Notes under the pieces: model-generated
Seen by the model: only the letters and a program-made list of their open reading frames with translations
Told to the model about the DNA's origin: nothing
Databases searched by the model: none
Origin: a virus
Length of the DNA: 64,000 bases
IMG/VR virus record: IMGVR_UViG_3300038701_001169
Span: 1-64,000 of that record
Direction: 5' to 3' (one strand)
Translations under genes and position numbers: made by a program
Part shown: positions 2,494 to 61,375 of the stretch, in pieces
How positions within the stretch are numbered: position 1 is the first letter of the stretch
Layout of the letters: every line of letters begins with the position of its first letter

Positions 2494-2565
2494 GCCTTTT
2501 TAGCTCAGTGGTAGAGCGTCTGCCTTGTAAGCAGAGAGTCCTCGGTTCAAGTCCGAGAAAAGGCT
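2494..2565 (+). tRNA. tRNA-Thr (anticodon UGU)
   Basis: Hand fold: acceptor GCCTTTT/AAAAGGC, D arm GCTC-AGTGGTA-GAGC, anticodon arm TCTGC-CTTGTAA-GCAGA, T arm CTCGG-TTCAAGT-CCGAG. Confidence 0.85.
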
Positions 2566-4238: not shown

Positions 4239-4676
4239 ATGTCACCCGAAAAACAAGAACTTTTGAAGAAGCTTGAAGAGCGCGGACTGGATAAAAATAA
4301 ATTTAAGAGATTAAGTGTCTCAAAATTAAAGGCAAAGATAGCTGAATTAGACAAAGCTGACGAAGTAGTCGAAGAGCCAAAAGACGAAGTAGTCGAAGAG
4401 CCAGAACTAGACCAGGAACAACTTAGCGAAATGAAAGAAGCTATAGTCGAAGCATGTGAAGAAGTCAAGAAGAACGCCCTTATCAAAAGACACATGGCTT
4501 CAGCTAGGTTTGCAACTCTTTTAGGACTCACACTTAAATCACCTAGACCGGTATGCAGTCACGCTATGCAAATGCATTTCAACAGCATCATGCCTAGGCC
4601 GAACGCCAACAACTTCAACAAAGATATTCATAACTTGTATCAAGACTTCAAGAAATATATCTCCCTTTTAAAATAA
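4239..4676 (+). CDS. hypothetical acidic protein
   Basis: ORF track. E/K-rich N-terminal half. Confidence 0.5.
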   Translation: MSPEKQELLKKLEERGLDKNKFKRLSVSKLKAKIAELDKADEVVEEPKDEVVEEPELDQEQLSEMKEAIVEACEEVKKNALIKRHMASARFATLLGLTLKSPRPVCSHAMQMHFNSIMPRPNANNFNKDIHNLYQDFKKYISLLK

Positions 4677-4695: not shown

Positions 4696-6255
4696 ATGAT
4701 AAAAGAAATTACCAAGTTCCTTGGAGGTCTCAGGAGAAAAAGAGATACTTCTCCTACAGGAGAAAAACTTCCTCCAACCCCTAAAGGAATACCTGAAGAA
4801 AAAGGAAGTGCAGGACTCAATATGTTCGGGGGACTCGAAAGAAAGAACGAGGACCACCCGGTCGAAGTCAGTGGACTATCAGGAGCCACTAAATTCTTTA
4901 GACAGATGACAAAAGACCCCACTATCGGAGGTTCTTTACAGATGTATACATCGATCTGTCAAATGGCTCAATGGCATGCAGAGTCAGCAACAGACGATAA
5001 AAAACCTGGATGGTCTGACGAAGAAGCGGATAAGAGTAAAATCTTCCTTGAGGAATGTATTAAAGATATGCAAGGAAGTATGAACGACATAGTTAGTCAA
5101 GTACTAGATATGTTAGTTCACGGATTCCACATTACAGTTCCTCAGTTTAAATTTCGTCAGGGACCAGACCAAGAAGACCCTAGACGACGATCCAGATACA
5201 ATGACAATAAAATCGGCTGGAATTACTGGAAGAGTATAGACCCTTATTCTGTGTATAGGTGGGACACACCTCGGGGAGAAGGGTACAGCTTACTAAAAGG
5301 CATTCAGCAACAAACAATATCAGGTTTCTCAGGATATATTGAGAGAGACAGAATGCTCTTGTTTAGAACTACAGCAAAGAACGACTCACCTTCAGGGGAA
5401 TCAGTTCTAGTTTCTGCTGTAGAGCCTTGGGAAGAGAAGAAAAGATCTGCGAATATAGAACTAACCGGCCTAGAGAGGAATCTTGAAGGGATACCTGTAT
5501 TTGATGTACCTGCAGCTTATTTAAGTGAGCACGCTACTGAAGAGCAAAAAGCAATTGTTCAGTACATTAAAAAAGCAGGGACATCCTTAAAATACAATAA
5601 TCAAACTTATATGTTGCGTCCTTCAGACAGGGACGATAACGGACATAGGCTTATAGACTTAGAGCTATTGAGTACTTCGGGAACAACAAGACCTGAAGCA
5701 GCAAGAGCTATTGTAGAAGCTAAAGAAAGACTTATAGCTGAAGCTGTACTCAGTCAGTTCCTAAAACTAGGGTCTAGTTCAGGTAGTTACGCGCTAAGTT
5801 CAGACATGACCGACTTATTTGTACTGGTTCTTAAAACTTATGTAGATCACATCAAAGAAGTCATTAACTCAGAAGCAATTCCCTACCTTTTCAAACTTAA
5901 TAAAATGGACATGCGTTACCTGCCTAGAATGGAGTACTCTGGACTAGAAAAGGATAATGTATCAGAGTGGATGAACTCTTTGTCTCAAGTAGCTAACGCT
6001 AACCTAATAGTCCCTTCTAAAGAAATCCAAGACGAGATCCTAGAAAGACTAGACCTACCTAAAGAAGAAGCAGGTAAGAAATGGGACGAGATAGAGAAAA
6101 TTAGAGATGATCTAGCTGAAAAGTTTTCACAAGCTGAAGAAGGTGCTCAAGCAGTTAAAGGTGCAGGTTCAGGTAAGAACAATGACGCTAACGGATCTGT
6201 AAGCCCTAAAGAAGGTTCTCCAGTACAGTCAATAATTAAGAAACTAACTAAGTAA
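4696..6255 (+). CDS. portal protein (Mu gp29/DUF935-like)
   Basis: 519 aa, immediately after TerL. The N-terminal region resembles DUF935 portals as recalled from memory. Confidence 0.7.
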   Translation: MIKEITKFLGGLRRKRDTSPTGEKLPPTPKGIPEEKGSAGLNMFGGLERKNEDHPVEVSGLSGATKFFRQMTKDPTIGGSLQMYTSICQMAQWHAESATDDKKPGWSDEEADKSKIFLEECIKDMQGSMNDIVSQVLDMLVHGFHITVPQFKFRQGPDQEDPRRRSRYNDNKIGWNYWKSIDPYSVYRWDTPRGEGYSLLKGIQQQTISGFSGYIERDRMLLFRTTAKNDSPSGESVLVSAVEPWEEKKRSANIELTGLERNLEGIPVFDVPAAYLSEHATEEQKAIVQYIKKAGTSLKYNNQTYMLRPSDRDDNGHRLIDLELLSTSGTTRPEAARAIVEAKERLIAEAVLSQFLKLGSSSGSYALSSDMTDLFVLVLKTYVDHIKEVINSEAIPYLFKLNKMDMRYLPRMEYSGLEKDNVSEWMNSLSQVANANLIVPSKEIQDEILERLDLPKEEAGKKWDEIEKIRDDLAEKFSQAEEGAQAVKGAGSGKNNDANGSVSPKEGSPVQSIIKKLTK

Positions 6256-6272
6256 CCACGTAGGAGTGTAAA

Positions 6273-7022
6273 ATGTCCTACGCTTACAGGTACACACTCC
6301 CTGAAAACCTGACTCAGGAACAAAGTCGCAAACTAAATCAGTTAGCCTTAGAGACCGCTAGAGGTGCCAGTGTAGTCCGTACAGGAAAGTTTAGAAGAGG
6401 ATGGAAATCCAGTATATCTAACAATGTATTGACTGTAGAAAACAGTGTAAAATACGCAGTTTACTTAGAGGTAGGTACAAAGTACTCTAGACAGCACAGG
6501 TTTAAGGTCAGAGATGCTCTTAACAGAGTAGGGTTTGACACAGCCAAGCCAGTTATATTAATCGATCAGCCGACAGACTCCACAGGACTTGCAGACACGC
6601 AGTCAAGCAACCAATCCACAGGAGTAGGTGGTCAAGTACCCGGAGGTACTTCAAATATAAAAGGGGCCAATGCACCGGACTCTCTCAACGATCTTCTCAT
6701 AACTAGCGAAGACCCTGTAGATATACTAATCAAACCTGTACCTAAGTTTAACGACGATACAAGGCCGACTATACCCTACAGAATTAGCTCTGTTCAAGAG
6801 GAAGTTGAGGCGTACAGGAAACTACTAGGTTCTAAGGAGCATATGATCAGCTTTGACGAGGTTCTGACCAAGTACAAGAAGTTAATCAAAAAACCTGTCC
6901 CTATTATAGACCTATTCAACAAAACTGCATTAACAATTCTCGTAAGTTCATTGTTGATTCAGTCAAAAACAGAAGAAGAGCAAGATGGAAGAGAAACAGA
7001 TATTCAAGGCGAAGTTCCATGA
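6273..7022 (+). CDS. minor head / HK97 gp10-like morphogenesis protein
   Basis: RTGKFRRGW...NSVKYAVYLEVGT resembles the HK97 gp10 family. It follows the portal. Confidence 0.35.
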   Translation: MSYAYRYTLPENLTQEQSRKLNQLALETARGASVVRTGKFRRGWKSSISNNVLTVENSVKYAVYLEVGTKYSRQHRFKVRDALNRVGFDTAKPVILIDQPTDSTGLADTQSSNQSTGVGGQVPGGTSNIKGANAPDSLNDLLITSEDPVDILIKPVPKFNDDTRPTIPYRISSVQEEVEAYRKLLGSKEHMISFDEVLTKYKKLIKKPVPIIDLFNKTALTILVSSLLIQSKTEEEQDGRETDIQGEVP

Positions 7023-8118: not shown

Positions 8119-8146
8119 ACCAAATAACCAAATAACCAAATAACCA
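8119..8146 (+). repeat. three tandem ACCAAATA units in the capsid-gene leader
   Basis: accaaataaccaaataaccaaataacc read directly, 19 nt upstream of the ATG at 8165. Confidence 0.8.
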
Positions 8147-8164
8147 ACCACCAAAGGACATATT

Positions 8165-11505: not shown

Positions 11506-11576
11506 ACATACACGACCAATCACCCGCTAGATCCTAGATCAGCAAAAACCAAATAACCATAAACCAAGGAAACGGA

Positions 11577-36072: not shown

Positions 36073-36392
36073 TCAGAGTCCTCTATCACAAATAGATCTA
36101 TCCCAGTCTGTTCCATGTGCATCCTGCAGTTACTGCAGACGTAAGTGTGACCTTTTAGATATAGAACCGATCCTTCAAGATCTAGTCCAAGAGCCTTGGC
36201 CTTATTAATTGCCTGTATCTCTGCGTGACCTTCTTGACCACAAACAGATCTACATAGGTCGTAACCTTCTCCGGTAGCCATCCCTAGTCTAGGGCATTTC
36301 TCAACATAGTTCTGTATGTCATTACTAGCTGAGACTAGAATTTTTCCTTTACGGTAAATAGTCGCAGTAACCACTTGTTTTAAACATTTCAT
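36060..36392 (-). CDS. dCMP/cytidine deaminase-like zinc enzyme
   Basis: HAE (GHAEIQAI) and C-x2-C (VCSNC) motifs. Confidence 0.7.
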   Translation of the reverse strand: MKCLKQVVTATIYRKGKILVSASNDIQNYVEKCPRLGMATGEGYDLCRSVCGQEGHAEIQAINKAKALGLDLEGSVLYLKGHTYVCSNCRMHMEQTGIDLFVIEDSECIK

Positions 36393-38604
36393 AATTCTCC
36401 TCCAGTAATTGTTTAGTGAGTATTAAAAAGGCTATAGCTGCTTGAGGAGGTACTACTCCGTTTCCGAGCATTCTGAGTCTTTCGATTCTGTTATCCTGAG
36501 TGACGTTGTACCTACCGGAATCCTCATTAGTTGCTCCACCCAGTCCGGGTTTAATTGTAACCCTTTGGTGCTCCCATTCGTGTTGTTGCTGGTTGGGTCT
36601 TGCAGGCCAACGAATACTTGCCTCGGTAGCTGGTCTATGTTGGTCTTCCCGTCCTTGCGAACAGTCGCCTGACCCGGTGTGTCCTTGTGATCTCTGGCAG
36701 TCGGTGTTGTCCAGTTCGGAGGAAGTACTACTTGGTCTTTCAGATCCATTCGATATGATCCCTCTTTCAACGGGTCTCTCGTGTTGCCTTTCTCCGACGG
36801 AGCATTGCCCTTGTATCTCGGTGGTCTCGCTTCTCCGCAGTCCACTGTCTGAGGGGTTTTCAAATTCTGTACATGCTCGTAAGCTACCTGATCCTCTAGA
36901 CGACTCTTGTGATCTTTCTTCGGAGTTCCATATCCACCGTTCGAAGTCACTCTTGGGGTTCCCCAGTTCGCTTCCAGTGTCTCGACTGCATCTCTCAATT
37001 TGGCTCCGTACCATCGCTCGGACGTTTGCCTGTACGATTTGAAACCAGTCGGGGTTATCTCTGTCTGAATCCTGCCTCCTTCGGCATCGGACACCCTGCT
37101 TGTAGGCCATGATAAAGACTCGCTTCCTTTGGTGAGGTGCGCCTGCTTCACTCGCAGAGAATACTCCCCACGTCGTTTTGTAACCTCTTTCTTCCAGATC
37201 TTTGAGCACTTGGAGCAGTCCTTTAGAGATATGTCCTTCGACGTTTTCGAAGAAACACATTCTGGGCATAATGCCGTCGATGATTCTACATATGTATGGC
37301 CAGAGGTGTCTAGGGTCTTCTTTTCCGAGTCGCTTTCCGGCCATAGAAAATGGCTGGCAGTTGTGGACCACAATGTTGTTGACTGTGTAACTGTTATCTT
37401 CTTCAACTTCGATATTGTATACTCGTTGATTTGTTCGGCATACATCGTTATATCTGATTTGTCTCCAACCGTAGTTTCCTTCTCTGAAGAATACTTTTTG
37501 GTTATTGGAGGGAAATGATACAGTGTAGTAGTCTGACTGGTTGACTGTTCGTCCTTCGATGACAGTTGTATCGGGAGTCTTCTGGAGCCTGACACTAGGT
37601 ACACATCCGAGAACAATTGATCCAAGCATCGATAAAGAGTATGCCAGTCTTCTAGAAACTGTTGTCGCTCTGTATCCTGACTTTTCTCTGTGTCCATCCC
37701 CTGACATGTATCCAGAGAATAGTGATTTGGCTTTACTATCTTCAAGTCCAAATACCCACCCAGGGATATACTTGTTCTCAGCCCCTTTTCCAAACTGGTC
37801 AAGAAATCTTGCGAAGTTAGTCTGGGTGATGTGATATTTAATAGCTGTTCGCTCTTCTGATCTGTAAGCTGTGAATCCCGATTGTTCGAGGATGTTTCTA
37901 AACTCTTCGTCTTTAACTTTACCGATACAGAAAACGGCCTTTCCTTTCTTTCCTTGGTATTGGGTGTATCCGTCAGCAAGCCACCTTCCAACAAGTTCCC
38001 AGAATCCTTCAGTATGTTCATCAGATTCTTTATCAACTGGGGTAACGTCACAGATAAACGTATCTCTGCATACGTCTTTAGCTTCTGTCCACTCTGGCTG
38101 CTTGAATCGTCTTTCTCCCTTGACTCTGTATCTTTGTCTAGTATAGAAAGGGTGCTCATCGGTACATTCAATACCATGTTGGCCACCGTGGGAAATGAGA
38201 CGAGTACTGGCTCCAGTCTTCTGCATGACGCTAAGTACTTTTCTCCATCTTCCTTTGTGAGTGAGAACCTGGTCTCCAAGCTGTACTTGTTCGATGGGCT
38301 TATGTCCTTCTTTAGTGAGGACAAGGTGTCCTTCTGTAAAGCAAGGGTATCCTCCAGTGAGTATGTCAGTGCTTCCTCGAAACGGGCGTAGAGGGAGGGT
38401 TTTAACATCCGAGTGAATAAGAGCCCAATCCATTTGACCCGCTTCCATCTTGTCAACCATGTTCGCAATGGCGAAAGATTCGATCTCCACATGAGTGATG
38501 ACTCTATGCGGGACTCTAGCAATTTTAAGTCCTCTTTCGATGCCACCATATCCTGCGCAGAGAGACAAGATACGTGCTTGGCTGGGTGGTTCGGAATAAT
38601 CCAC
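36349..38604 (-). CDS. DNA (cytosine-5) methyltransferase, intein-containing (frame A, GTG start)
   Basis: Motif I LCAGYGGIERG. Motif IV GGYP-C/QPFSMAGKR, split by the intein. Also FFENVEG, QRKRVFIMA, and a terminal RLRMLGNGVVPPQ. The middle 190 codons of this frame look like nonsense. Confidence 0.75.
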   Translation of the reverse strand: MDYSEPPSQARILSLCAGYGGIERGLKIARVPHRVITHVEIESFAIANMVDKMEAGQMDWALIHSDVKTLPLRPFRGSTDILTGGYPCFTEGHLVLTKEGHKPIEQVQLGDQVLTHKGRWRKVLSVMQKTGASTRLISHGGQHGIECTDEHPFYTRQRYRVKGERRFKQPEWTEAKDVCRDTFICDVTPVDKESDEHTEGFWELVGRWLADGYTQYQGKKGKAVFCIGKVKDEEFRNILEQSGFTAYRSEERTAIKYHITQTNFARFLDQFGKGAENKYIPGWVFGLEDSKAKSLFSGYMSGDGHREKSGYRATTVSRRLAYSLSMLGSIVLGCVPSVRLQKTPDTTVIEGRTVNQSDYYTVSFPSNNQKVFFREGNYGWRQIRYNDVCRTNQRVYNIEVEEDNSYTVNNIVVHNCQPFSMAGKRLGKEDPRHLWPYICRIIDGIMPRMCFFENVEGHISKGLLQVLKDLEERGYKTTWGVFSASEAGAPHQRKRVFIMAYKQGVRCRRRQDSDRDNPDWFQIVQANVRAMVRSQIERCSRDTGSELGNPKSDFERWIWNSEERSQESSRGSGSLRACTEFENPSDSGLRRSETTEIQGQCSVGERQHERPVERGIISNGSERPSSTSSELDNTDCQRSQGHTGSGDCSQGREDQHRPATEASIRWPARPNQQQHEWEHQRVTIKPGLGGATNEDSGRYNVTQDNRIERLRMLGNGVVPPQAAIAFLILTKQLLEENYEMFKTSGYCDYLP

Positions 38605-38606
38605 AT
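36453..38606 (-). other. 717-codon second open frame (frame B, ATG start) fully overlapping the methyltransferase gene
   Basis: ORF track. Its C-terminal 200 aa carry SWPTSRVSDAEGG, NWGTPRVTSNGG, NWTTPTARDHKD and LNPDWVEQLMRIPVG. Confidence 0.6.
37360..38343 (-). mobile_element. 328-aa intein with a LAGLIDADG homing-endonuclease domain, inserted at the catalytic Cys of motif IV
   Basis: N-terminus CFTEGHLVLTKEG, block B TDEHPFYT, LAGLIDADG-like GRWLADGY and GYMSGDGH, C-terminus NNIVVHN followed by +1 Cys. I verified the codons at both junctions by hand. Confidence 0.85.
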
Positions 38607-38632
38607 ATAAGTCCTTGGTTATTTGGTTTGGT

Positions 38633-38875
38633 TTATTTGGTGTTGGTTATTTGGTAGGTATAGTTTTCAGCAAGTCCCATACATGTAAGGTGTTCGTTGA
38701 TTCCTTCTCTCGACCAGGTTCGTCCAGACTCTTTATGGATTAGTGTCCAAGCATCTCTAAGTCCTCTTTCCGGCTCAAAGATAAATCGAATTTCGAACAG
38801 GTTATTGTAGTAATGAAGGTATCCGTAGTCTTCGTGATAATTGGTCGTGGTTTCAGGTTCTTTAGTCCAGTCCAT
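38633..38875 (-). CDS. hypothetical protein
   Basis: ORF track. Confidence 0.5.
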   Translation of the reverse strand: MDWTKEPETTTNYHEDYGYLHYYNNLFEIRFIFEPERGLRDAWTLIHKESGRTWSREGINEHLTCMGLAENYTYQITNTK

Positions 38876-39140
38876 CTAAGTGCTTCTTTATTTCATTTAG
38901 GATGTACTCAAGGGACATAACGGACTCGATATTAAGGAACTTTATATCTAGTAGTCTTAACCTGTCAGTAGCGTCTAGATCTCCTGCACCTATTGGCTTA
39001 GGGGAGTGGTTTACACTGATAGCTAGAAAGGGTGTATCGTCCTCTGTAACAGCAAAACCGAAAGATAGTTCTCCTTTACCTGCAGTCACTCCGACTCTAC
39101 CGTCTGGATATCTATCGATGGGTTTATACTCTTTACTCAT
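38862..39140 (-). CDS. hypothetical protein
   Basis: The ATG at 39140 overlaps the upstream stop (ATGAGTAA). The track start at 39185 is less likely. Confidence 0.5.
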   Translation of the reverse strand: MSKEYKPIDRYPDGRVGVTAGKGELSFGFAVTEDDTPFLAISVNHSPKPIGAGDLDATDRLRLLDIKFLNIESVMSLEYILNEIKKHLDGLD

Positions 39141-39636: not shown

Positions 39637-39818
39637 AGTTTTTTCCTCGCTCTACGTTTCTCAATCTGCTTCTTTTTCATCCCGGCACGTCTTTTCTCAG
39701 GCCTGTATTTTTTGCGTCTTTTATGAGGGTCAGAATTCCTCCACATTGGGATAGGCTTAAATTCATGAACAGGCTCAATAGCCCCACTGCATAAGAAGCC
39801 TAAAAGTATATGAGGCAT
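39633..39818 (-). CDS. hypothetical basic protein
   Basis: ORF track. K/R-rich C-terminus. It carries the CA-rich leader. Confidence 0.45.
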   Translation of the reverse strand: MPHILLGFLCSGAIEPVHEFKPIPMWRNSDPHKRRKKYRPEKRRAGMKKKQIEKRRARKKL

Positions 39819-39839
39819 AAAAAGTCCTTGGTTATTTGG

Positions 39840-40247
39840 TTAGTCTGAAGCTTTTTCGTACATCTCTTTAATAACGTTCTCAGGGACTGGGTTTGGTCTC
39901 TTACTGTTACGGTCTATGCACGTATTTAGAGGAGTGTGCATCTGTATTGTAGATACCTGGACATCGGGATATGATTTCATGAATTCGAGAATAGTCTCCT
40001 CTGAATTAATGTTCATATTGTCCATGATTATAGAGTATTTAGTATTCTCTATGAGATGTTGAAGTATAGCTATACTTGTTTCTTTAACAGGCTCTGAGTG
40101 CATTGGATGGAAGACTACATTGAACATCATTAATCTTAAGTCATCACAATTGATACGAACCATGTTGCTCGACATAGAAAGTAATTCTTTAGCAAAGGTG
40201 GATTTACCCGATCCTTGTGGGCCTCTCATTAGTATTAGTCTTCTCAT
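39840..40247 (-). CDS. P-loop polynucleotide kinase-like protein (kinase domain only)
   Basis: LILMRGPQGSGKST...RINCDDLR parallels T4 Pnk LTIGCPGSGKST...NINRDDYR as recalled from memory. Confidence 0.5.
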   Translation of the reverse strand: MRRLILMRGPQGSGKSTFAKELLSMSSNMVRINCDDLRLMMFNVVFHPMHSEPVKETSIAILQHLIENTKYSIIMDNMNINSEETILEFMKSYPDVQVSTIQMHTPLNTCIDRNSKRPNPVPENVIKEMYEKASD

Positions 40248-40256
40248 ACGGACTCC

Positions 40257-41171
40257 TTAGAACAATTGAGAGAGGTGATCTTTGACTCTAAGTGTAGTGA
40301 AGTTATTTAGAACTTTATAATCGATCTTAGGGTTCTTGAATTTTTTGATAAAGTCCCATGAGTGTTCACGTACAAGGTCGTAGAAAACGGTGTGAAGAAG
40401 TCTAGGAATCATTTTAGAGGACCATCCTTCGGACTCAGTAACAATGTTAGAATAAACCTTGTCTATGATATCGTCAGTAAGGAATTGATTTATGATCTTT
40501 TCTTCTACGTAATCTGAGCCTTTACATTTAGGAGGGCCGTCCGCTTTTCTGTGCTTTTGTTTAAAGTCTGCAGTGACTATTTTAGCCCATGTCTGTCTAC
40601 CGTACTTGTTCACAAAATCGTAGTTCTTAATTACTACTCCTTCTCCTTTACCTTCCCCGTCCTTAATCAAATAGTCATTATCTTCTAGACACTTGTACAG
40701 GTTTTCTGTAGTAGGGTTTTTAATAACCCTCATAGGAACTATGTAGTCAGTGTAGACCATTTTGTCTAAAAGTACTTTATAATCTTCGTAGTGTACGTGA
40801 GTGCCGTCTTGTTTAACTACATCGAAGATATAGAACTTGCGCCATGCTTCTTTTTCGTATGTCTTTAAAGTGTGAGGTACTAACCACTCTCCGTATACAT
40901 GGCAATTAGGGTAGAACGTATCTAAGTAAGATACTGTATCTAATAAATTATAGTTACTTGAAGCCCATTCCATAAACCCGGCATTGTCTTTGCTTAGTGT
41001 TAGTTGTCTCTTACGACTCCCGAACTTTATTAAATTGTCTTCTCGATCAAGCCATACATGAGCGTTGGTTCCATCTATCTTTGGGAATATGTAGCAGTCA
41101 CCTAGTTCGATTCCTTCTACTTCTGTATTCCCTAGTTTTTCTACATGTTGGTATTTTCTATATTCGGTCAT
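40257..41171 (-). CDS. Rnl2-like RNA ligase (nucleotidyltransferase motif I KIDGTN)
   Basis: YRKYQHVEKL...FPKIDGTNAHVW resembles the Rnl2 N-terminus including KxxGxN. 304 aa. Confidence 0.55.
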   Translation of the reverse strand: MTEYRKYQHVEKLGNTEVEGIELGDCYIFPKIDGTNAHVWLDREDNLIKFGSRKRQLTLSKDNAGFMEWASSNYNLLDTVSYLDTFYPNCHVYGEWLVPHTLKTYEKEAWRKFYIFDVVKQDGTHVHYEDYKVLLDKMVYTDYIVPMRVIKNPTTENLYKCLEDNDYLIKDGEGKGEGVVIKNYDFVNKYGRQTWAKIVTADFKQKHRKADGPPKCKGSDYVEEKIINQFLTDDIIDKVYSNIVTESEGWSSKMIPRLLHTVFYDLVREHSWDFIKKFKNPKIDYKVLNNFTTLRVKDHLSQLF

Positions 41172-41186
41172 GGTTATTTGGTCTCT

Positions 41187-41241
41187 GGTCTTTGGTCTTT
41201 GGTCTTTGGTCTTTGGTCTTTGGTCTTTGGTCTTTGGTCTT
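41187..41241. repeat. about 8 tandem copies of the heptamer GGTCTTT (AAAGACC in the gene sense) in the RNA-ligase leader
   Basis: Read directly, with unit starts at 41187, 41194, 41201, 41208, 41215, 41222, 41229 and 41236. Confidence 0.85.
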
Positions 41242-41950
41242 GGTTATTTAGTTGGTTATTTGGATATAAAGTCCTAAGTGAGTTATTGAGTGTCAGTTGG
41301 GTACTGGCTGCCTTCAGAGCATCCTCCTACGAGACAACTGTTTGTCTTCCCTGATCACGTCTCTAGTATTACCTCCTCCCTCTCCACGAGGGTCGGCCTT
41401 GAGGTACTTGAGGGATGTCTCCCATACCTCTCCACCGTCTTAGGACTAAGGACAACGTATGGGATTCGAACCCCGAAGCTGCATACTTCTACCCGAGCAC
41501 CTATCCTGGTTACTCTACGTTGTCGTGCCTTAATTCGATAAGATCTACATTCCTATCTTTTCGGGACTTGATACAGATGTAAGGCCTCTTGTTTACCTGT
41601 ATTTTCTAGAGAAATACACTAACTGCTAATAGTTAACGGGAACTAGCTTCCCTCTACCAGATACGTGGGGTAGTCCACGTGTAGATTGATAAAGTACAGA
41701 GTAGGTTTTTCACCTACGAAATAAACTCTTTCTATCGAGCCACCTTACATTATCTCCGCTTGCTATTGTGTGCGGTCTGGTTTCCTGTACTGGGTTGATT
41801 CTTCAGAAGGGCTCAACCAAGCCTGTGAGTTTATAGACACTTAGGTCTGATTTTATCTCTTAGAGGTCTTGCTCTGACCACCGTCCCGTTTGCCTGCACG
41901 TCTTATCGGGACCTTCATTCAAGGGTGCAGTCCAGTGTTTAAAACGGACT

Positions 41951-42145
41951 TTAGATCGTTATTAGTTCACATGTTTCAAAGTCTCTCTTACATCTTGAGC
42001 TATGGACCTCATAAGTGGCTTTGCAGTTACCTGAAGACATGCACCTAACTCTATGACATTTTACATGAAGGTTACTGTTCTCTGTATCGTAACGTACAAC
42101 GAAAGAACCCCCGCAAGAACTGCATCTGTACTGTTTATCAGTCAT
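41951..42145 (-). CDS. small zinc-ribbon protein
   Basis: AAGGAGA followed by ATG. Contains CSSCGG...C-x4-C. Confidence 0.55.
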   Translation of the reverse strand: MTDKQYRCSSCGGSFVVRYDTENSNLHVKCHRVRCMSSGNCKATYEVHSSRCKRDFETCELITI

Positions 42146-42166
42146 ATTATCTCCTTAAAATTGTCC

Positions 42167-42198
42167 CGTTCATTTACTGTTGTACGAGGAACTATCAG
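42167..42198 (-). promoter_or_regulatory. repeat motif CTGATAGTTC-N6-CAACAGTAAATGA-CG, copy 1
   Basis: Lies 22 nt upstream of the ATG at 42145 and shares 25 conserved positions with copy 2. Confidence 0.4.
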
Positions 42199-42371
42199 GG
42201 TCTACACAGTGCTTTACAGTGCCTGTGTCCGGTTGCTTCTGTTGTAACTAACCTAGTTATTGTCCTTGTTACTTAGGACTATGGCCTGCTAGGTATAGGA
42301 GTGCGAATAAGTCAGCTCATCACACCATTAACTGTTTAAAGTCACTTCGGACTAGTTCTGACGTTAAGTAG

Positions 42372-42482
42372 TGAATAGGGTAGGATTCGAACCTACGACT
42401 TTCGGTGTTCGGTCTATCTATTTATCATGAATATTTTTAATAAACCCATCGATGCGATGCTCTACCACTGAGCTACCTATTC
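42372..42482 (-). ncRNA. tRNA-like gene 1 (canonical acceptor, D and T arms; 62 nt where 23 are expected)
   Basis: Acceptor GAATAGG/CCTATTC, D arm GCTC-AGTGGTA-GAGC, T arm GTAGG-TTCGAAT-CCTAC. I found no 5-7-5 anticodon arm by hand. Confidence 0.6.
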
Positions 42483-42593
42483 TTATTGCCTGACACAAGG
42501 AGCTACCTCATATCTAGGACTTTCACCGTTGTAGTTATAGGTTCTGACGACAACCTACTTACCGTCCTCAGAGCGTTCCTTCTCCGAGAGAAA

Positions 42594-42705
42594 TGCAGAG
42601 CCTTGGATTCGAACCAAGACTTCACGAGTTAATCAGCCTCATGAACTAGGTTGATGAGTCCTAGATACACCTAGGGTGCTGTGCTACCAGTTACACTAAC
42701 TCTGC
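42594..42705 (-). ncRNA. tRNA-like gene 2 (63 nt between the D and T arms)
   Basis: Acceptor GCAGAGT/GCTCTGC, D arm GTGT-AACTGGTA-GCAC, T arm CTTGG-TTCGAAT-CCAAG. Internal hairpins CTAGG-ACTCATCAA-CCTAG and TCATGAG-GCTGATTAA-CTCGTGA both have 9-nt loops. Confidence 0.6.
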
Positions 42706-42712
42706 TTATATA

Positions 42713-42746
42713 CGCTCATTTACTGTTGAACCTATCGAACTATCAG
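42713..42746 (-). promoter_or_regulatory. repeat motif CTGATAGTTC-N7-CAACAGTAAATGA-CG, copy 2
   Basis: Lies 8 nt upstream of the 5' end of tRNA-like gene 2. Confidence 0.4.
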
Positions 42747-42787
42747 TTTTGCCTCGTGCATTTTCCGGTCTGTCTTGAGGTCTTAAG

Positions 42788-42917
42788 TGCAAGGAGTAGG
42801 ATTCGAACCTACGCGATAGTTGACTAGACTTATCTGGACTAGGGACTAAAAGTAGTCAAATAATAGTTCCTATTCCTACCGGGCTTGTCCCGAGCTCTAC
42901 CACTGAGCTACCCTTGC
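42788..42917 (-). ncRNA. tRNA-like gene 3 (81 nt between the D and T arms)
   Basis: Acceptor GCAAGGG/TCCTTGC, D arm GCTC-AGTGGTA-GAGC, T arm GTAGG-TTCGAAT-CCTAC. The first internal hairpin CGGG-ACAAG-CCCG has a 5-nt loop. Confidence 0.6.
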
Positions 42918-43066
42918 TTAAGTCACGGAGTTTAAAGAGATACAGTGACATCGCTCTTTAATTGATTTGTTACGCTGGCTCAACCTTGCCTCTGGAATCC
43001 GGGCTTTCACCGTACTTGGATCTATTGCGTCCACAAGTGCTTGAATTCCGCAGTAATTACCTAGTA

Positions 43067-43363
43067 TTAGAAAGGTACTTCTTCGTGCTTTCTCTGCTGT
43101 AAGAGATAACCTTCCAGCATCCAGATCTTGTCTCTGATCTTCTTCATACAAACCTTATGTCCAAGATTCTCTGAGTAATTGTCGGGATCTACACAAGTAG
43201 CGGTCTCTACAATAGTGAATCCGTTCTTGAGCCGGACAGCAACTACAGTAGTCAGTTTACCTACTAAGTAGTCCGTTCTAGTTTGTACTTCGACTATTGT
43301 TCTTTCTACATGGTCTGGAGTAACTGAGTCTGGGATGTGTCCATCCGGGTAGTCTGGCTCCAT
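43067..43363 (-). CDS. N4 gp49 / Sf6 gp66 family protein
   Basis: VAVRLKNGFTIVETATCVDPDNYSENLGHKVCMKKIRDKIWMLEGYLL matches the family pattern as recalled from memory. The start at 43363 overlaps the upstream stop (TAATG). Confidence 0.6.
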   Translation of the reverse strand: MEPDYPDGHIPDSVTPDHVERTIVEVQTRTDYLVGKLTTVVAVRLKNGFTIVETATCVDPDNYSENLGHKVCMKKIRDKIWMLEGYLLQQRKHEEVPF

Positions 43364-43866
43364 TATGCTTCGGGCTCTTTCTTGAATCGGCAAGAGTCCA
43401 CGTATCTTTCGTAGTTCTCTTCAGATGCCTTAGCCTCGAATTCGGATTTAGTAATAGGTCCTTTGCATTTCTTCTTGACGAAAGGTTTCTCAGGGTCTTT
43501 CTTCCATGCGGAGTACTCAACTACCATACCCTTCAAGGGTTGTTCTGGACTTGCTGCTTTCAATAAGTGATCGAAAGTAATTTTATCTACTGTAGTGCCG
43601 AATATATCAGCCATAAGTGTTTTAACCTCATTGAAGAAGAAGTCACTTGATTCTGAATGCAGGTCACATACAGATTTTCCAACTGTATTTGTTCCATCGA
43701 AGCAGTGAACTACTTCACCTTCGACTTTAAAGTTACCTATGCCTTTGCGGTTCTTTCCACGTTCGATATTGTCAATACGTAAAAGGAAGTTACCTGGTTC
43801 CATGTATGCAGATGATGATTTAGGTTTTGCGCTGTTGAATTGATCAGCCCAATGGTCTTGACTCAT
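43363..43866 (-). CDS. hypothetical protein
   Basis: ORF track. It carries the CA-rich leader. Confidence 0.55.
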   Translation of the reverse strand: MSQDHWADQFNSAKPKSSSAYMEPGNFLLRIDNIERGKNRKGIGNFKVEGEVVHCFDGTNTVGKSVCDLHSESSDFFFNEVKTLMADIFGTTVDKITFDHLLKAASPEQPLKGMVVEYSAWKKDPEKPFVKKKCKGPITKSEFEAKASEENYERYVDSCRFKKEPEA

Positions 43867-43893
43867 ATGTTCTTTGTCCTTGGTTATTTGGTC

Positions 43894-44621: not shown

Positions 44622-44962
44622 TCTACCTTCTGCACTGAAACGATGTTCTTATACATTGAGAAGAAAGGTACTCTCCATCCATATATATCTGCTTTGTAGG
44701 TGCTACCTTCTTTGAGTTCTCTCTGAATATCTGAGCTATTAAATTTCCATCGCATAATAGAGTCTTTGTTCTGAAGTACTTCGTCCGTCGTGAATATAAG
44801 GTACTTGGATTTAGAGTTACTGATTACTACAGTCTTTTCCTCTACAGTGAACTCAATAGTATCTGCTGTTGCGTATGGGTAGATCATAGCTCCTATGCAG
44901 AATACTATGAAAGAGACTATAATGACTAACGATCCTATTAAAGATAATGTATCTGACTTCAT
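44618..44962 (-). CDS. membrane protein (DUF1523-like)
   Basis: N-terminal TM segment, then YKADIYGWRVPFFSMYKNIV. Confidence 0.45.
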   Translation of the reverse strand: MKSDTLSLIGSLVIIVSFIVFCIGAMIYPYATADTIEFTVEEKTVVISNSKSKYLIFTTDEVLQNKDSIMRWKFNSSDIQRELKEGSTYKADIYGWRVPFFSMYKNIVSVQKVE

Positions 44963-44995
44963 TTAAAGTTGTTCCTTGGTTATTTGGTTAGGTGG

Positions 44996-56754: not shown

Positions 56755-59625
56755 CTAAGAAACGAAGTATTGTGAGTCGAATATACAAGACATATCTAGG
56801 TCTCCTTGTTCGATTTCCCAGTCTGATACACCATTAGCCTCTATGGCCTCTTCTTCACTCATGTGAGAATAGGTGTCTAATACTTCTGTGTTAATAAGTT
56901 CTTTGCATTCTTCCCAGGTATTTGTTTCAGTTACTTCTAAGCACCAGTCACGTATAAGATTTTTACCGTTGAATATCTCATAGGCTGCTTCTCGAACAGA
57001 TAGGTTTAAATCGTCCACCCACTCGCACAGAGTTCCGTAACTATCGTGTACAAGTTTCAGGAAATTAACGCCTTTCTCTTTGCACTTTAGAACTGTCATC
57101 ATTAGTAGAGAAGCGTCTAGGCTATGGATGAAATCAGGAGCCATAGCATTAGCCATTTTTACCCCGTGCATTTTACCTGTTGGCTCTAAGTAGGTTGATT
57201 TAAGTCTTCCTTTTTCATAAACTACTTCGCTTTCTCCTTGACTGTTCTTGTGTATTTTTCTTTTAGGGAAGTTGACAAATATTTCATCTCTTTCCATTCT
57301 CTCAGTAGCTCTAAACGCCTTAAACCCAACCGGCGTAGTCCATTTGATAGGCTTGTTTTTACGTGCTAGGAACCTGGCTACTTTTTGAATCAGGTTCATG
57401 CCAGTGGTTGCGCATTTAGCAGCCTTCTTTAGGGCGTATGTAATTATGTGAGCGAAACACTGAGTAGCTAACTTATCACAAGAGAAGTTCACCTGCATGT
57501 CAGTAATTGCTTCTTTCGAATATTTCCTAATGCCTTCATGAGTTAGTCCGTATGTTAAGCACATAACGGGTCTTTTTGTATGTGATCTATTTATACCGTG
57601 TTCTCTAAACTGCTTTAGGATTTCTATTTTCTCTTGTCTAAAGTCGTTGCCTTCTTTATCTTTTTTGTCTAAGAGCATTTCGACAGCAGGGTTACTAAAG
57701 TCACCTAACATATTGTTAAGATTGCTGGCTAGTTCATCGCTTAATTCATCTGTGCATTCACCTTCTAACACTATCCTCATCATTTCATCTGCAGTATCTT
57801 TGTAGATGTCTTGAGGACATTCTGTAGGGCTTACATTGACACTGTGAGCGACCTGACTATCTAAGTAAAGCATGGCGTATATCTGAATACCTGAGCAAGT
57901 AGCATCTAAATCTACGCTTACATGAGATCTGTGAGTCTCTTTATTCCTATTGTATGCTGTGTAGTCTTTGATTGCTTTTAGGAATTGAACAGGTTCCTCT
58001 GCTTTAGTCCACTCATTGTATTTTGCTGGATTCATGGCCATTGATTGAAACGTTCCCCAGTTCTGACGAACAAACTCAGCTCTTTGATCCAGTGTCATTT
58101 TGTCTGTAGATTTAGTTACGCCGTCGTGTGTTTCTGTCTGTCCCCAGAGGGTAGCTATATTGACTCTAAGCCAGTAAGCACCTCTCTCTGATACTTTGCA
58201 GCCTATGGAGGATTTCAGAATGCCTTTACTAAGGTCGTTGATCTGGGGGTGTAGTGTCGTCGATAACGGGTAGGACCTTCCTCTCTTGTCACAGTTGTGA
58301 GGGAAGAAAAGTTCTGCGTACTCCTGAAGATTTGAGGCAGTCTCTAAGGATCTCATTGACGCACTGCACTTAGATACATTCCCTTTCTTCTTTTTTAGAA
58401 TCTTGAACCAGTGTGAGATGTATCTGTTGTGTACTAATTCGTCCCAGGAGTTGTCACCTTCCTGCTGCCTTTCCTCTTTGTATTTATTACACACATCTAC
58501 AAACTCTCGTTCAGTGTCGAATAACTTTCTTAGTGGAGGTTTTGGTGGAAGGTCTACAGTTGTACTTATTCCAGGTATCTCTACACCTTTTTCTATACAC
58601 TCTAAGATGGAAACCAACATTTCTGTGTCAACCGTATATCTACTTGACTCAATATGATCTATAGCTTCATATACTTTAGGCATCTCATCTACAGAGTGAT
58701 CTTCTTTAAAGTATTTAAACTTGCTTGGGTTCTCTTCGTCCTTGTACTGGTACTTTAAGTTCCTTACTAAAGGATGTCCGTATCTAGAGGGGGAGGTATA
58801 TTGTACAGGTCTACGTATACTAGGTATCTGACAACCTTTAGTGTAGAGTAGGTTAGTAGACATCATTTCTTGAGCTTTATCGTAGTACTCAGGAGTCATT
58901 TGTATGTATGGTATCGTTACAATTAGGTCTCCGTTTTTTCTAGATCTCTTTTTAGTTAGCTCTATTACTTCAAACATATTAGAGTTGTCTAAGATGAACA
59001 TAACTAGCTGAGCACCTACTTCCATTCCAGTTTTATTTCTAGCTTTGTATACTTTATCTTGGTCACGTACACCATAAGCAAAGAAAAGTAGTTCTGATCT
59101 AGAGAGTAGCTTAAATCCTTTTTTGTCTTTATTGATGTATTGCTCTTGTTCTTTGTCAGCCAACAATTTTGGACCTAAAACACTCCCTATGTTGGATATG
59201 ATCGTCCTTCTCATGACTTTTGTAGTGTCTTCCTGAGACAAACATGAATTCATGAAGTGAGTAAGAGAAATAAGTACTAATTCCCTACATCTTGATAGGT
59301 GGTTGTCTTTGTGGTTAGGATATGTGTTGCAGAATCTGCTTAGGTATTTGGATTTTGTTTTTGTAGTGTTTAGGTAGTTTTGGAATTTGTTGGATAGCTC
59401 CCATACTTCTTCTTTAATTAATTGTATTCCGGTTCTTGTACTGGCTCCGTTATTGGTTTTGTACAGAGTGTCTAGATTGTCTTGAAGTAAGTCCTTACTG
59501 ATTTCTTTTTGCTTCGTTTGATATAACTTAACCTCCTCTATGTCAGGGTATCTCTTCTCTCCGTCCCAGTTAGGAGTTCTAGTTATTTCTGCTATTGAGT
59601 TTCGAATTGTGTCCCTTTCGGTCAT
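56755..59625 (-). CDS. T7-like single-subunit DNA-dependent RNA polymerase
   Basis: DATCSGIQ (T7 DGSCSGIQ), HTKRPVMCLTYG (T7 VTKRSVMTLAYG), PDFIHSLDAS (T7 PNFVHSQDGS), LVHDSYGT (T7 IHDSFGT). Confidence 0.85.
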   Translation of the reverse strand: MTERDTIRNSIAEITRTPNWDGEKRYPDIEEVKLYQTKQKEISKDLLQDNLDTLYKTNNGASTRTGIQLIKEEVWELSNKFQNYLNTTKTKSKYLSRFCNTYPNHKDNHLSRCRELVLISLTHFMNSCLSQEDTTKVMRRTIISNIGSVLGPKLLADKEQEQYINKDKKGFKLLSRSELLFFAYGVRDQDKVYKARNKTGMEVGAQLVMFILDNSNMFEVIELTKKRSRKNGDLIVTIPYIQMTPEYYDKAQEMMSTNLLYTKGCQIPSIRRPVQYTSPSRYGHPLVRNLKYQYKDEENPSKFKYFKEDHSVDEMPKVYEAIDHIESSRYTVDTEMLVSILECIEKGVEIPGISTTVDLPPKPPLRKLFDTEREFVDVCNKYKEERQQEGDNSWDELVHNRYISHWFKILKKKKGNVSKCSASMRSLETASNLQEYAELFFPHNCDKRGRSYPLSTTLHPQINDLSKGILKSSIGCKVSERGAYWLRVNIATLWGQTETHDGVTKSTDKMTLDQRAEFVRQNWGTFQSMAMNPAKYNEWTKAEEPVQFLKAIKDYTAYNRNKETHRSHVSVDLDATCSGIQIYAMLYLDSQVAHSVNVSPTECPQDIYKDTADEMMRIVLEGECTDELSDELASNLNNMLGDFSNPAVEMLLDKKDKEGNDFRQEKIEILKQFREHGINRSHTKRPVMCLTYGLTHEGIRKYSKEAITDMQVNFSCDKLATQCFAHIITYALKKAAKCATTGMNLIQKVARFLARKNKPIKWTTPVGFKAFRATERMERDEIFVNFPKRKIHKNSQGESEVVYEKGRLKSTYLEPTGKMHGVKMANAMAPDFIHSLDASLLMMTVLKCKEKGVNFLKLVHDSYGTLCEWVDDLNLSVREAAYEIFNGKNLIRDWCLEVTETNTWEECKELINTEVLDTYSHMSEEEAIEANGVSDWEIEQGDLDMSCIFDSQYFVS

Positions 59626-59721
59626 ATCTACCTCGGTAATTGGTATGGTTATTCAGGTATTGGTTATGTGGTTAATTTAAATATTAATCGATATATGATA
59701 TATTTCAACACGTGTTACGTG

Positions 59722-60147
59722 TTATTTTCTATAAAAATGAGCAAGAACTTTTTCAGTGTACTGTCTCCTTGTCTTTTTCATTATGCTCCCAGAGTTCCAT
59801 GAGGATATTATTTTGTCTAAGGTAGGGTATTCTCCGTACTTCCTAAAGTATCTTGAAACCTCGTGCTTTAGGAATAGGTAACATATTTTGTGGCTTTGTT
59901 TTCTAGAGTACAGATCTTTCTTAGTGAAAGTTGTCCCGTGAAGGTTGTTCACGTGCCTAAGCATTATCTGCCTTATCTGCATACATCCAATTTCCCCGGC
60001 TTTCCCTATTGCATGAGTTCGTCCAGAGGATTCTATCTGCTCTATTGACTTAATGATCTCTTTGTAAGGTACTTTGTCTGCTTTGGCTAAGTTAGCCATA
60101 ATTATTATTATTATTATAATTACTGTGGTTTTGGTTATTTGGTTCAT
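59722..60147 (-). CDS. SLT-domain lytic transglycosylase with a poly-Ile N-terminal segment
   Basis: IEQIESSGRTHAIGKAGEIGCMQI matches the SLT pattern ES....A.S..GA.GLMQ. An alternative start (MANLAKA) lies at 60099. Confidence 0.6.
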   Translation of the reverse strand: MNQITKTTVIIIIIIIMANLAKADKVPYKEIIKSIEQIESSGRTHAIGKAGEIGCMQIRQIMLRHVNNLHGTTFTKKDLYSRKQSHKICYLFLKHEVSRYFRKYGEYPTLDKIISSWNSGSIMKKTRRQYTEKVLAHFYRK

Positions 60148-61302: not shown

Positions 61303-61375
61303 GAGTGTGTCCTGTTTGGTCTTGGTTATTTGGTTTACATGTAATTATAGCACGCCATTAAGGTATTGTCAATTA

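Follow-up and report, generated by a model that had tools for sequence, protein, structure and literature searches.

Non-coding RNAs that mimic tRNAs have a precedent next to bacterial RNA-repair genes (PMC4201824), namely the YrlA-type bacterial Y RNAs, which are the partners of the Ro60 (Rsr) protein (Chen et al. 2014, PMC4201824; Wang et al. 2018, bioRxiv 10.1101/312249) and are defined by a GNCGAAN0-1G Ro60-binding motif together with a YUAY element (PMC4201824). Another set of RNAs that invites comparison is found in phage T4: the role of RNAC and RNAD, the species 1 and 2 RNAs, is still unknown (PMC3014915, PMC9697503). Beyond YrlA and T4 RNAC/RNAD, literature searches yielded no description of phage tRNA genes with short inserts or of anticodon-less phage tRNA mimics. 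Here we consider three tRNA-like genes, E1, E2 and E3, on the minus strand of a 64,000-nt stretch of viral DNA (IMG/VR record IMGVR_UViG_3300038701_001169, positions 1 to 64,000; hereafter, the window), which lie in an island upstream of an RNA ligase gene and a polynucleotide kinase gene and in which the acceptor, D and T arms of a tRNA surround an aberrant anticodon region. An initial annotation of this DNA, made by a model from the sequence alone, had pointed out the three genes at the positions given in Table 1, and they were found again there by Rfam (E1 and E3) and by an explicit finder (E2).

The tRNA frame of these elements is readily described. In E3, the acceptor stem GCAAGGG/TCCTTGC encloses the D arm GCTC-AGTGGTA-GAGC and the T arm GTAGG-TTCGAAT-CCTAC; in E1, the acceptor stem GAATAGG/CCTATTC is combined with the same D and T arms; and E2 has a set of its own, with the acceptor stem GCAGAGT/GCTCTGC, the D arm GTGT-AACTGGTA-GCAC and the T arm CTTGG-TTCGAAT-CCAAG. 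The discriminator nucleotide is A73 in each case. Altogether, 48 of the 48 frame base pairs are intact, and only the anticodon region is aberrant. Thus, the three arms are as intact as initially described in that all of them pair, but the acceptor stems are not uniformly perfect, since those of E2 and E3 each include one G.U pair. Similarly, the reported distances between the D and T arms (62, 63 and 81 nt) had to be amended for E2, which measures 62 nt, so that the spacing is 62 nt in two of the elements and 81 nt in the third. The nucleotides that make tertiary contacts (U8, A14, G18G19, T54-T55-C56 and A58) are all kept in E1-E3. The Levitt pair 15:48, in which position 48 is the nucleotide just 5' of the T stem, is G15:C48 in E1 and E3 and A15:U48 in E2 and in the orthologue of E3 described below. 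An ARAGORN search for transfer-messenger RNA (tmRNA) was negative, and the G3:U70 pair of the tRNA-Ala-like domain of tmRNA is absent, position 3:70 reading A:U in E1, E2 and E3.

The Rfam tRNA matches to E1 and E3, to be compared with a gathering threshold of 29 bits, treat 50-67 nt as insertions; E2 was not matched by Rfam. All three elements were returned by a top-half finder whose requirements are a 7-bp acceptor stem, a GG-containing loop on the D stem and, on a T stem of 5 bp, the T-loop consensus TTCGAAT. Applied to both strands of the window, this finder additionally returned the ordinary threonine tRNA and nothing further, the chance expectation being roughly estimated at ~0.03 per window; it missed the normal glycine tRNA. 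Folding, one of the checks proposed in the initial annotation, gave a congruent picture: de novo minimum-free-energy folds recover the acceptor, D and T arms, with z-scores of -2.15 for E3, -3.52 for E2 and -2.28 for E1, and, in the case of E2, the fold was equalled by 0 of 200 shuffles. The feature is real and non-random. E1-E3 consist of a tRNA core with intact acceptor, D and T arms.

Compensatory changes in the acceptor stem and the covarying Levitt pair indicate that the frame is maintained by selection. The orthologue of E3 (L075_118) occupies positions 3573-3690 of a related phage, L075, whose ligase is 58% identical to that of the window. Between E3 and L075_118, four of the seven acceptor pairs have changed on both sides and a fifth from G.U to G-C, with the D and T arms invariant. 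Likewise, E1 and E3, which are paralogues, have acceptor stems that differ at four of seven pairs, with changes on both sides in three of these, and no pairing has been lost. No DNA match was found among GenBank phages by blastn in either near or distant mode, and pattern scans of viral contigs for further orthologues gave one unrelated tmRNA-like match and nothing more.

These observations bear on the option of decayed genes that the initial annotation had listed, under which E1-E3 would be tRNA pseudogenes in decay or neutral leftovers of an earlier tRNA cluster, with insertions gathered by chance. Phage tRNA clusters do turn over fast, and elements in L075 and in the related phage L072 have been lost or shortened, L075 even showing a tRNA with an 8-nt anticodon loop; furthermore, E1 and E2 have no orthologues, and E4, a compact element of the same island, is tRNA-like only weakly. 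However, acceptor pairs that change compensatorily between orthologues and between paralogues, along with a covarying Levitt pair, argue against pseudogenes, and decay at random would not confine itself to erasing the anticodon loop, leaving 48 of 48 frame pairs and every tertiary-contact nucleotide in place. Moreover, one and the same design, with a stub in place of the anticodon arm and a long variable region, is seen in three different elements. Decay therefore appears unlikely as the explanation of E1-E3, even if the fast turnover between L072 and L075 keeps it alive for some elements.

The anticodon region of E1-E3 has a shared layout: a stub hairpin with a loop of 3-5 nt directly follows position 26 and is itself followed by 48-67 nt of element-specific hairpins before C48/U48. 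Specifically, in E3 the stub CGGG-ACAAG-CCCG precedes a 67-nt variable region; in E2, the stub GCACC-CUA-GGUGU is followed by two hairpins with 9-nt loops (ACUCAUCAA and GCUGAUUAA); in E1, the stub AUCG-CAU-CGAU is followed by an AU-rich hairpin and then by single-stranded GAACACCGAAAGUC. The E2 hairpins, which the initial annotation had already recognized along with the CTCATCA of one loop, bear the anticodon-loop-like CUCAUCA and CUGAUUA with a pyrimidine at the equivalent of position 37, a resemblance to which, as to the Lys-like loop of E3 described below, no statistical meaning can be assigned. The layout of E3 is read as a stub arm plus a long variable region because of the alignment with L075_118: Rfam aligns the latter with a complete anticodon arm (CUCGA-UUAUUAG-UCGAG) and a 46-nt variable-region insertion, and, in the pairwise alignment, the first hairpin of E3 falls on this anticodon arm. 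It appears, then, that the anticodon loop collapsed and the variable region expanded, rather than both being replaced.

Could an ordinary anticodon arm be hidden in these genes? In its default mode, ARAGORN called both normal tRNAs of the window, in agreement with their initial description, and none of E1-E3; its intron modes gave weak models with mismatched stems and impossibly long variable arms for 'Gly' and 'Val'. We also deleted every contiguous segment between the D and T arms and gave the remainder a score of up to 14 for a 5-bp stem, a 7-nt loop, U33 and a purine at position 37. The single-excision scores were 2, 4 and 1 for E1, E2 and E3, respectively, whereas shuffled inserts had a mean of ~3 and reached at least 13 in at most 0.5% of cases; as a positive control, 21 of 31 distinct look-alike genes of other phages score 13-14. 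A model with two deletions has no power, its null mean being 11-12. The numbers of bulge-helix-bulge (BHB, 3-4-3) motifs were 0, 0 and 1, against shuffled means of 0.16, 0.35 and 0.81. Since excision restores an anticodon arm no better than in shuffles, the reading of E1-E3 as single-intron tRNAs is rejected. The same holds for group I introns, which the initial annotation had rightly set aside: the inserts exceed a normal tRNA by 39-58 nt, a group I core needs at least 200 nt, and no ribozyme, intron or other Rfam family was matched in the island at E <= 10, except for a sub-threshold match of tRNA-Sec to E4. E1-E3 have no canonical anticodon arm, as first reported, and none is regenerated by cutting out a segment.

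Protein-spliced introns had also been put forward initially; in a less restrictive version of this idea, E1-E3 would be precursor tRNAs with one or several such introns, an endonuclease making the cuts and the Pnk kinase and Rnl2-type ligase healing and sealing the ends to yield decoding tRNAs. The location of such a pair of enzymes directly downstream would fit, and so would certain alternative pairings: in Rfam's own alignment of E3, a long-range stem CGGGA/UCCCU surrounds a CUUUUAG loop that resembles Lys-UUU, and E2, on reading its sequence, acquires a 5-bp stem with a 9-nt loop once 37 nt after position 28 are removed. The positive control, to which many bacterial sequences can be added, shows that this architecture can encode an anticodon stem-loop. 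Nevertheless, E1 offers no solution, the excision scores and BHB counts do not rise above the shuffled null, the orthologue alignment assigns the first hairpin of E3 to the anticodon-arm position, the kinase has neither a 3'-phosphatase nor a CPDase domain, and no candidate endonuclease lies nearby. In addition, Rnl2-type ligases seal nicks in duplexes, not breaks in loops. Splicing of this kind is, accordingly, improbable. An antisense or guide role was rejected as well, the best match (14 nt) being equalled in 5% of shuffles. This match is a perfect complement between nt 6-19 of the E1 insert and the minus-strand mRNA at window positions 39114-39127, that is, +14 to +27 of the ATG at 39140 of a small gene overlapping the preceding stop codon; with 15 of 300 shuffles matching its length, it is not significant on its own.

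The island was initially depicted as a 1.6-kb non-coding stretch. E1-E3 are indeed there, but so are the candidate gene ORF64, two further RNA elements (E5 and E4) and a duplicated motif of ~33 nt, with a heptamer array nearby. The order from 5' to 3' on the minus strand is the N4-gp49 gene, E3, E2, E1, ORF64, E5, E4, the heptamer array, the ligase gene and the kinase gene (Table 1). E5 has an acceptor-type stem of 7-8 bp, two internal hairpins and, at the T position, the hairpin GTAGG-TGAAAAA-CCTAC, without canonical D or T loops; over 101 nt, it shares 76% identity with the DNA directly preceding the ligase gene in two other loci (L238/L239). The consensus fold of E5 is a four-way junction in which 3 of 23 pairs have changed compensatorily, including G1-C72 to C1-G72 (z-score -1.65). 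E4 combines a 9-bp acceptor stem with the T arm GGG-TTCGAAT-CCC and folds with a z-score of -4.26; its match to Rfam tRNA-Sec (20.9 bits, E 0.63) is below threshold, no orthologue was found, and E4 is best described as a weak tRNA-like element.

ORF64 belongs to no Pfam or PHROG family and has no homologue among 5.8 billion proteins, so that its candidacy as a conserved partner protein was rejected; in another assembly of this phage (L074, JGI 3300036200 contig Ga0401693_089), no gene is called across this stretch. The sequences of E1-E3 in L074 are identical to those in the window. L074 carries the E1-E3 region with its flanking genes twice in inverted orientation, at 61-606 (-) and 6255-6800 (+), which could be an assembly artefact or else a real inverted duplication or genome end. 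The ~33-nt motif (CUGAUAGUUC...CAACAGUAAAUGA(G/A)CG) occurs in two copies, upstream of E2 and of ORF64, compared to a chance expectation of 0.02. With just two occurrences in the window, it was rejected as a phage promoter; it may represent a local promoter, a site of processing or the scar of a duplication. A pattern search found the array framed neither by a sigma-70-type promoter nor by a convincing terminator pattern.

Table 1. Positions of the RNA elements, genes and motifs of the window, and of arrays and genes in the loci used for comparison
Feature	Position	Strand	Basis or remark
N4 gp49 / Sf6 gp66 family gene	43067-43393	-	Pfam PF13876, E 3.5e-26; upstream boundary of island
E3, 130-nt tRNA-frame RNA	42788-42917	-	Rfam tRNA 43.9 bits, E 2e-7
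Duplicated motif, copy 1 (..GATAGTTC..CAACAGTAAATGAGCG)	42713-42738	-	8 nt upstream of E2
E2, 112-nt tRNA-frame RNA	42594-42705	-	Top-half finder; no Rfam match
E1, 111-nt tRNA-frame RNA	42372-42482	-	Rfam tRNA 56 bits, E 9e-11
Duplicated motif, copy 2	42167-42192	-	22 nt upstream of ORF64 start codon
ORF64, candidate 64-aa Cys-rich protein (CxxC...C..C)	41951-42145	-	ORF list; AAGGAG Shine-Dalgarno sequence
E5, cloverleaf RNA of ~100 nt	41690-41789	-	L238/L239 homologue, consensus fold
E4, compact 74-nt cloverleaf	41451-41524	-	Fold z-score; Rfam tRNA-Sec below threshold
7-nt tandem array, GACCAAA on coding strand, 9.3 copies	41177-41241	.	Directly upstream of ligase start codon
Rnl2-type ATP-dependent RNA ligase, 304 aa (predicted)	40257-41171	-	PF09414, PHROG 548, fold matches
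Polynucleotide 5'-kinase domain, 135 aa	39840-40247	-	AAA_33, PHROG 505, PDB sequence matches
Ordinary tRNA, Gly-TCC	2261-2333		ARAGORN
Ordinary tRNA, Thr-TGT	2494-2565		ARAGORN
Leader motif sites in window	38605-38655, 39818-39868, 41160-41252, 43865-43892, 44961-44988, 59622-59672, 60116-60143, 61307-61334		
Leader motif sites, plus-strand genes	4160-4191, 8123-8154, 11544-11567		
Ro60-type arrays	L128 2208-2496; L133 5450-5730; L171 956-2799; L206 372-678; L219 5201-5488; L223 3487-3608; L119 3999-4531; L211 6524-6640; phage L038 1418-2097		
746-aa protein gene, L146	370-2610	-	
746-aa protein gene, L151	2097-4340	+	
746-aa protein gene, other loci	L147, L150, L165, L173, L177, L182, L193, L196, L198, L200, L204, L205, L212, L234, L237		

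That a Pnk-like kinase and an Rnl2-like ligase are encoded immediately downstream on the same strand was borne out by PHROG, PDB and fold matches. The PHROG families of the two proteins are annotated as 'RNA ligase' and 'polynucleotide kinase', respectively. The AlphaFold model of the ligase (pLDDT 90.6) has its best PDB fold matches in full-length T4 Rnl2 (2HVR and 2HVQ, E 1e-11), followed by REL1 and then by the Naegleria nick-sealing ligase; judging from this model, the enzyme is predicted to be of the Rnl2 type and to seal nicks in duplex RNA. The best sequence matches of the kinase in the PDB are Pnkp1 (4xrp, 2.5e-10), PSTK (1e-8) and T4 Pnk (2e-6), the protein being a Pnk-type kinase domain alone, without a phosphatase domain. 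No gene for a 3'-phosphatase, Hen1 or an endonuclease is adjacent, according to the Pfam and PHROG annotation of the neighbours.

The phage also encodes a T7-type RNA polymerase, a Mu-like portal and a serine recombinase. Many of its start codons, on both strands, are immediately preceded by the motif ACCAAATAACCAAGG (AAUAACCAAAUAACC on the mRNA), a candidate non-Shine-Dalgarno leader or translational enhancer, and the heptamer array that precedes the ligase represents this motif in expanded form. By its ligase, the nearest cultured relative is Cellulophaga phage phi19:3 (49% identity), which, together with the non-Shine-Dalgarno leader motif, suggests a host in the Bacteroidota. Ligases with more than 55% identity are encoded on the contigs SPKZ01007788.1, ERZ27279858 k141_30409 and Ga0075110_1003154. 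Apart from the RNA genes, we noted a C5 cytosine DNA methyltransferase at window positions 36349-38604 (-) that is split by an intein, with a Hint domain at residues 87-135, a splicing domain ending near residue 415 and the extein-intein junctions GGYP/CFTEGH... and ...VVHN/CQPF.

How widespread is the association between such RNAs and this ligase? Among ~70 loci encoding the ligase family of the window, aberrant tRNA-like genes are found upstream of the ligase in 3, namely the window, L072 and L075. A general pairing of ligase and mimic was rejected, the ligase family being present in 0 of 170 loci that show the D-arm/T-loop spacing pattern. The site of the insert varies: it is the D loop in the L072 element X2 and the variable region in L075_118, and an otherwise normal L075 tRNA (3825-3899) has an 8-nt anticodon loop (CUGGUGAA) where its L072 orthologue has a normal Thr-UGU loop. 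In L075, all that is left of X2, which is 105 nt long in L072, is an acceptor minihelix (CAGUCGG-11 nt-CCGAUUG-ACCA, with the ACCA encoded, at ~4270-4300). Between the two islands, the flanking DNA is ~81% identical, and whole tRNA-like elements have been lost or shortened. The module recurs in this clade and evolves quickly. Two further features of these loci deserve mention, namely a class-II-like element at ~4300-4420 of L075, with a Leu-type D arm and the T arm GUAAGG-UGCAAAU-CCUUAC, and a non-coding block of 411 nt (L072 6836-7237 / L075 3001-3402, 81.5% identical) just upstream of the tRNA-like arrays. This block, which could be a structured RNA, matches no Rfam family, and the window has nothing that corresponds to it.

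The closest known relative of the window RNAs in design and genomic logic is a wider class of insert-bearing tRNA frames. A scan for a canonical D arm, 55-85 nt and a canonical T loop yielded 52 viral and at least 120 genomic loci, with perfect acceptor stems in most; Rfam sees the members of this class solely as tRNA. In the excision test, 21 of the 31 viral look-alikes and many bacterial sequences regain a perfect anticodon arm upon a single excision of 30-59 nt, which usually starts after position 27-29. The restored 5-bp/7-nt arms (L019-L070, L118-L237) include Lys-UUU, Asn-GUU, Gln-UUG, His-GUG, Cys-GCA, Met-CAU and a UCA suppressor-like loop, and almost never arise in shuffles. These RNAs may be spliced to working tRNAs or may simply mimic the anticodon arm. 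Archaeal members are to be expected because archaea have BHB introns; the bacterial ones were unexpected and find an explanation in their neighbours, Ro60/Rsr (TROVE plus vWA, E 3e-63) and RtcB, the latter representing a tRNA-splicing ligase family. By tblastn, Rsr was detected in 18 genomic loci and in the phage locus L038, and RtcB in 16 genomic loci. The insert consensus of the class, ...CCCUUGCC-loop-GGGCCGAAGG...GAGGGUUAUCG, corresponds to the Ro60-binding motif and the YUAY of YrlA. The Ro60-type arrays comprise 1-4 tRNA-frame RNAs in normal order, with free acceptor ends and a GNCGAAG hairpin plus YUAY after position 27-29, beside rsr/rtcB; they appear to be a non-permuted counterpart of YrlA, which is not described in PMC4201824 and bioRxiv 10.1101/312249.

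In Bacteroidota loci, a protein of ~746 aa without a Pfam family, encoded in 17 loci with 50-97% identity and accompanied by RtcB and a WYL/WCX regulator nearby, directly adjoins a tRNA-Lys(UUU)-like gene with a 45-nt insert, with no recognizable Ro60 there. Still another subclass (L019, L028, L031 and L059, the last two from jumbo-phage contigs of 371-378 kb) has inserts that start with UAU(A/G)AA, form a single hairpin and share the tail GCAGCAACUAUACU, without a Ro60 motif. Taken on its own, the comparison class blurs the line between Y RNAs and intron-bearing tRNAs in bacteria and may matter in itself.

It might be supposed that E1-E5 are divergent YrlA-like members of this class and would work, in the manner of Y RNAs, with a Ro60 (Rsr) of the host or with the 746-aa protein of Bacteroidota. 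As for design, both sets have a structured insert at the anticodon position of a tRNA frame and come in arrays of 2-4 near RNA-repair genes; the Rsr-encoding phage L038 has three such RNAs; the 5' 24 nt of E3 are identical to those of the class member L040; the stretch AACUAUUAU of E3, read by eye, resembles the YUAY tail of the class; and the likely host is in the Bacteroidota, where such modules are common. Against this, patterns validated on the Rsr-linked set (43% of positives versus 5% of shuffles for the strict Ro motif, 81% versus 3% for GRTTAYC) found neither the strict Ro motif nor GRTTAYC in E1-E5; there is no long bulged helix at the anticodon position; and tblastn of the 64-kb window, which leaves ~5.7 kb of the 69.7-kb contig outside, detected no Rsr (E <= 1e-4), RtcB or 746-aa homologue. 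Given the missing signature, the missing partner genes and the stub that stands in for the long bulged helix, E1-E5 do not appear to be members of the Ro60-type class, and we regard a Y-RNA identity of this sort as very unlikely.

Taken together, the selected frame and the collapsed anticodon loop fit two of the four options of the initial annotation, anticodon-less mimics or decoys and processed regulatory RNAs, the other two being unsupported (introns) or argued against (decay). We favour the view that E1-E3 are functional, non-decoding tRNA mimics, with a probability of about 0.5; E5 and E4 are probably non-decoding tRNA mimics as well, and our confidence in any particular target of these mimics is much lower. 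The position of the E1-E3 array in an RNA-repair cassette and the recurrence of ligase-linked aberrant tRNA-like genes in a small clade speak for mimicry. Recognition by RNase P, the 3' processing nucleases and the CCA-adding enzyme is confined to the acceptor/T minihelix and the elbow, and, for this reason, tRNA-like processing of the array is expected: it would be cut into discrete RNAs of ~110-130 nt that would be CCA-tailed and stabilised like tRNAs, yet unable to decode. Cutting by RNase P and CCA tailing of the Mycobacterium smegmatis YrlA Y RNA provide a direct precedent. The variable-region payload would be the working part, binding or distracting a protein, be it a host tRNA-directed nuclease or toxin or a repair factor, and the RNAs would act together with the adjacent heal-and-seal pair, the Pnk kinase and the Rnl2-type ligase. 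They could serve as decoys, soaking up nucleases or toxins of the host that are directed at tRNAs, or else as adaptors through which a protein partner reaches tRNA-like substrates, the part that Y RNAs play for Ro60.

The processing enzymes just mentioned also suggest a more modest function, in which host RNase P and RNase Z would cut the transcripts at E1-E3 and so separate the upstream operon from the ligase/kinase mRNA, the excised RNAs being functionless. tRNA punctuation and mascRNA-type processing are established mechanisms, the T7-type RNA polymerase makes long transcripts, the array lies between two same-strand gene blocks, and only the parts recognized by RNase P, RNase Z and the CCA-adding enzyme are conserved. 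However, a single element would suffice for this purpose, yet the island has three to five, whose elaborate inserts all differ; cleavage requires no more than a minihelix, yet the D arm, the Levitt pair and the elbow have been retained; and most related phages have no such signals at the same position. Mere punctuation thus seems to us an improbable account of the array. More improbable still would be aminoacylated non-decoding carriers, charged for a non-ribosomal reaction by a synthetase that ignores the anticodon (LeuRS or SerRS, with class II-type recognition). Charging of class II tRNAs is known to be independent of the anticodon, and all the elements share long variable regions and A73, along with a conserved A3:U70 (as read from the sequence) and, in E2 and L075_118, A15:U48. 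But no identity set is matched, no associated transferase gene is present, the variable regions greatly exceed natural class II arms in length, and the idea is purely inferential.

Several considerations weigh against functional mimics. Detectable orthologues exist for E3 and E5 alone, in one lineage each, so that the covariation rests on two sequences, and E1 and E2 have no homologue outside this phage; conservation of the insert structures is hypothetical. Most relatives of the ligase, including that of Cellulophaga phage phi19:3, have no such RNAs, so that the link between ligase and mimic is not general. The fast turnover seen in the reduction of the L072 element X2 to a minihelix suggests weak constraint on at least some members. 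Finally, expression and processing of the RNAs are predicted, the protein partner and the target are hypothetical, and the specific role of decoy or adaptor is a conjecture.

If functional mimicry is nevertheless accepted, the notion can be taken one step further. Speculatively, and with low odds in our own estimate, a marine, probably Bacteroidota-infecting clade of phages may have evolved its own family of anticodon-less tRNA mimics as one module with an Rnl2-type ligase and Pnk. The RNAs would be either decoys or sensors for host immunity that cleaves or modifies tRNAs, the enzymes resealing damaged RNAs, or substrates of a phage protein-dependent pathway of RNA cutting and rejoining. In either case, the module would parallel the cellular Ro60-Y RNA-RtcB system on the phage side, with other proteins and another RNA payload. 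Phage tRNA genes are now viewed as weapons against host tRNA-cleaving defences; non-decoding look-alikes beside repair enzymes, their shape preserved by selection, if they are what we think, would be the sign of another tactic, based on mimicry or tethering instead of replacement, would extend the idea of tRNA-mimic Y RNAs to a system without Ro60 and would offer a handle on the 50-year-old question of the purpose of T4 RNAC/RNAD. Standard tRNA finders miss or mis-call such genes.

How, then, do these elements relate to the known systems? [quoted passage not shown] Unlike YrlA, which is encoded within ~4 kb of rsr on the same strand, E1-E5 have neither the GNCGAAN0-1G helix nor YUAY and no rsr, rtcB or 746-aa partner gene; the anticodon-position hairpin of E1-E3 is a short stub, the bulk of the insert residing in the variable region; and YrlA is circularly permuted (Ro stem, V, T, closed acceptor stem-loop, D), whereas E1-E3 have the normal order and free acceptor ends. 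The repair enzymes of the window represent the 5'-PO4/3'-OH pathway (Pnk, Rnl2), in contrast to RtcB, the YrlA-type neighbour. With T4 RNAC and RNAD, the elements share their status as phage small RNAs; the T4 RNAs, of 119-139 nt, are stable and sited among tRNA genes. T4 rnaC (L242 1409-1547, 139 nt) has the T arm CCGGG-TTCGAAT-CCCGG, the following 7-nt strand pairs with the 5' end at 5 of 7 positions, and the RNA thus presents a partial tRNA frame around ~100 nt of unrelated hairpins. Unlike E1-E3, which resemble it in architecture, it has no D arm and an imperfect acceptor stem, and RNAC and RNAD show no sequence similarity to E1-E5 and are not adjacent to the T4 ligase or Pnk genes. Like intron-containing tRNA genes, the window elements have a frame interrupted near the anticodon arm, with a ligase and a kinase that recall heal-and-seal splicing; unlike those with BHB or group I introns, they yield no anticodon arm upon excision, have no BHB, and their inserts are too short. 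In the engineered 'tRNA scaffold' that Ponchon and Dardel are said to have described in 2007, the anticodon arm is reportedly replaced by a structured RNA that is processed and stabilised by the tRNA machinery; this is an artificial design, used here as a proof of principle for the behaviour of such an RNA in a bacterium. On balance, E1-E3 are best filed as tRNA-mimic non-coding RNAs, a known kind, within which they are neither members of a known family nor categorically new.

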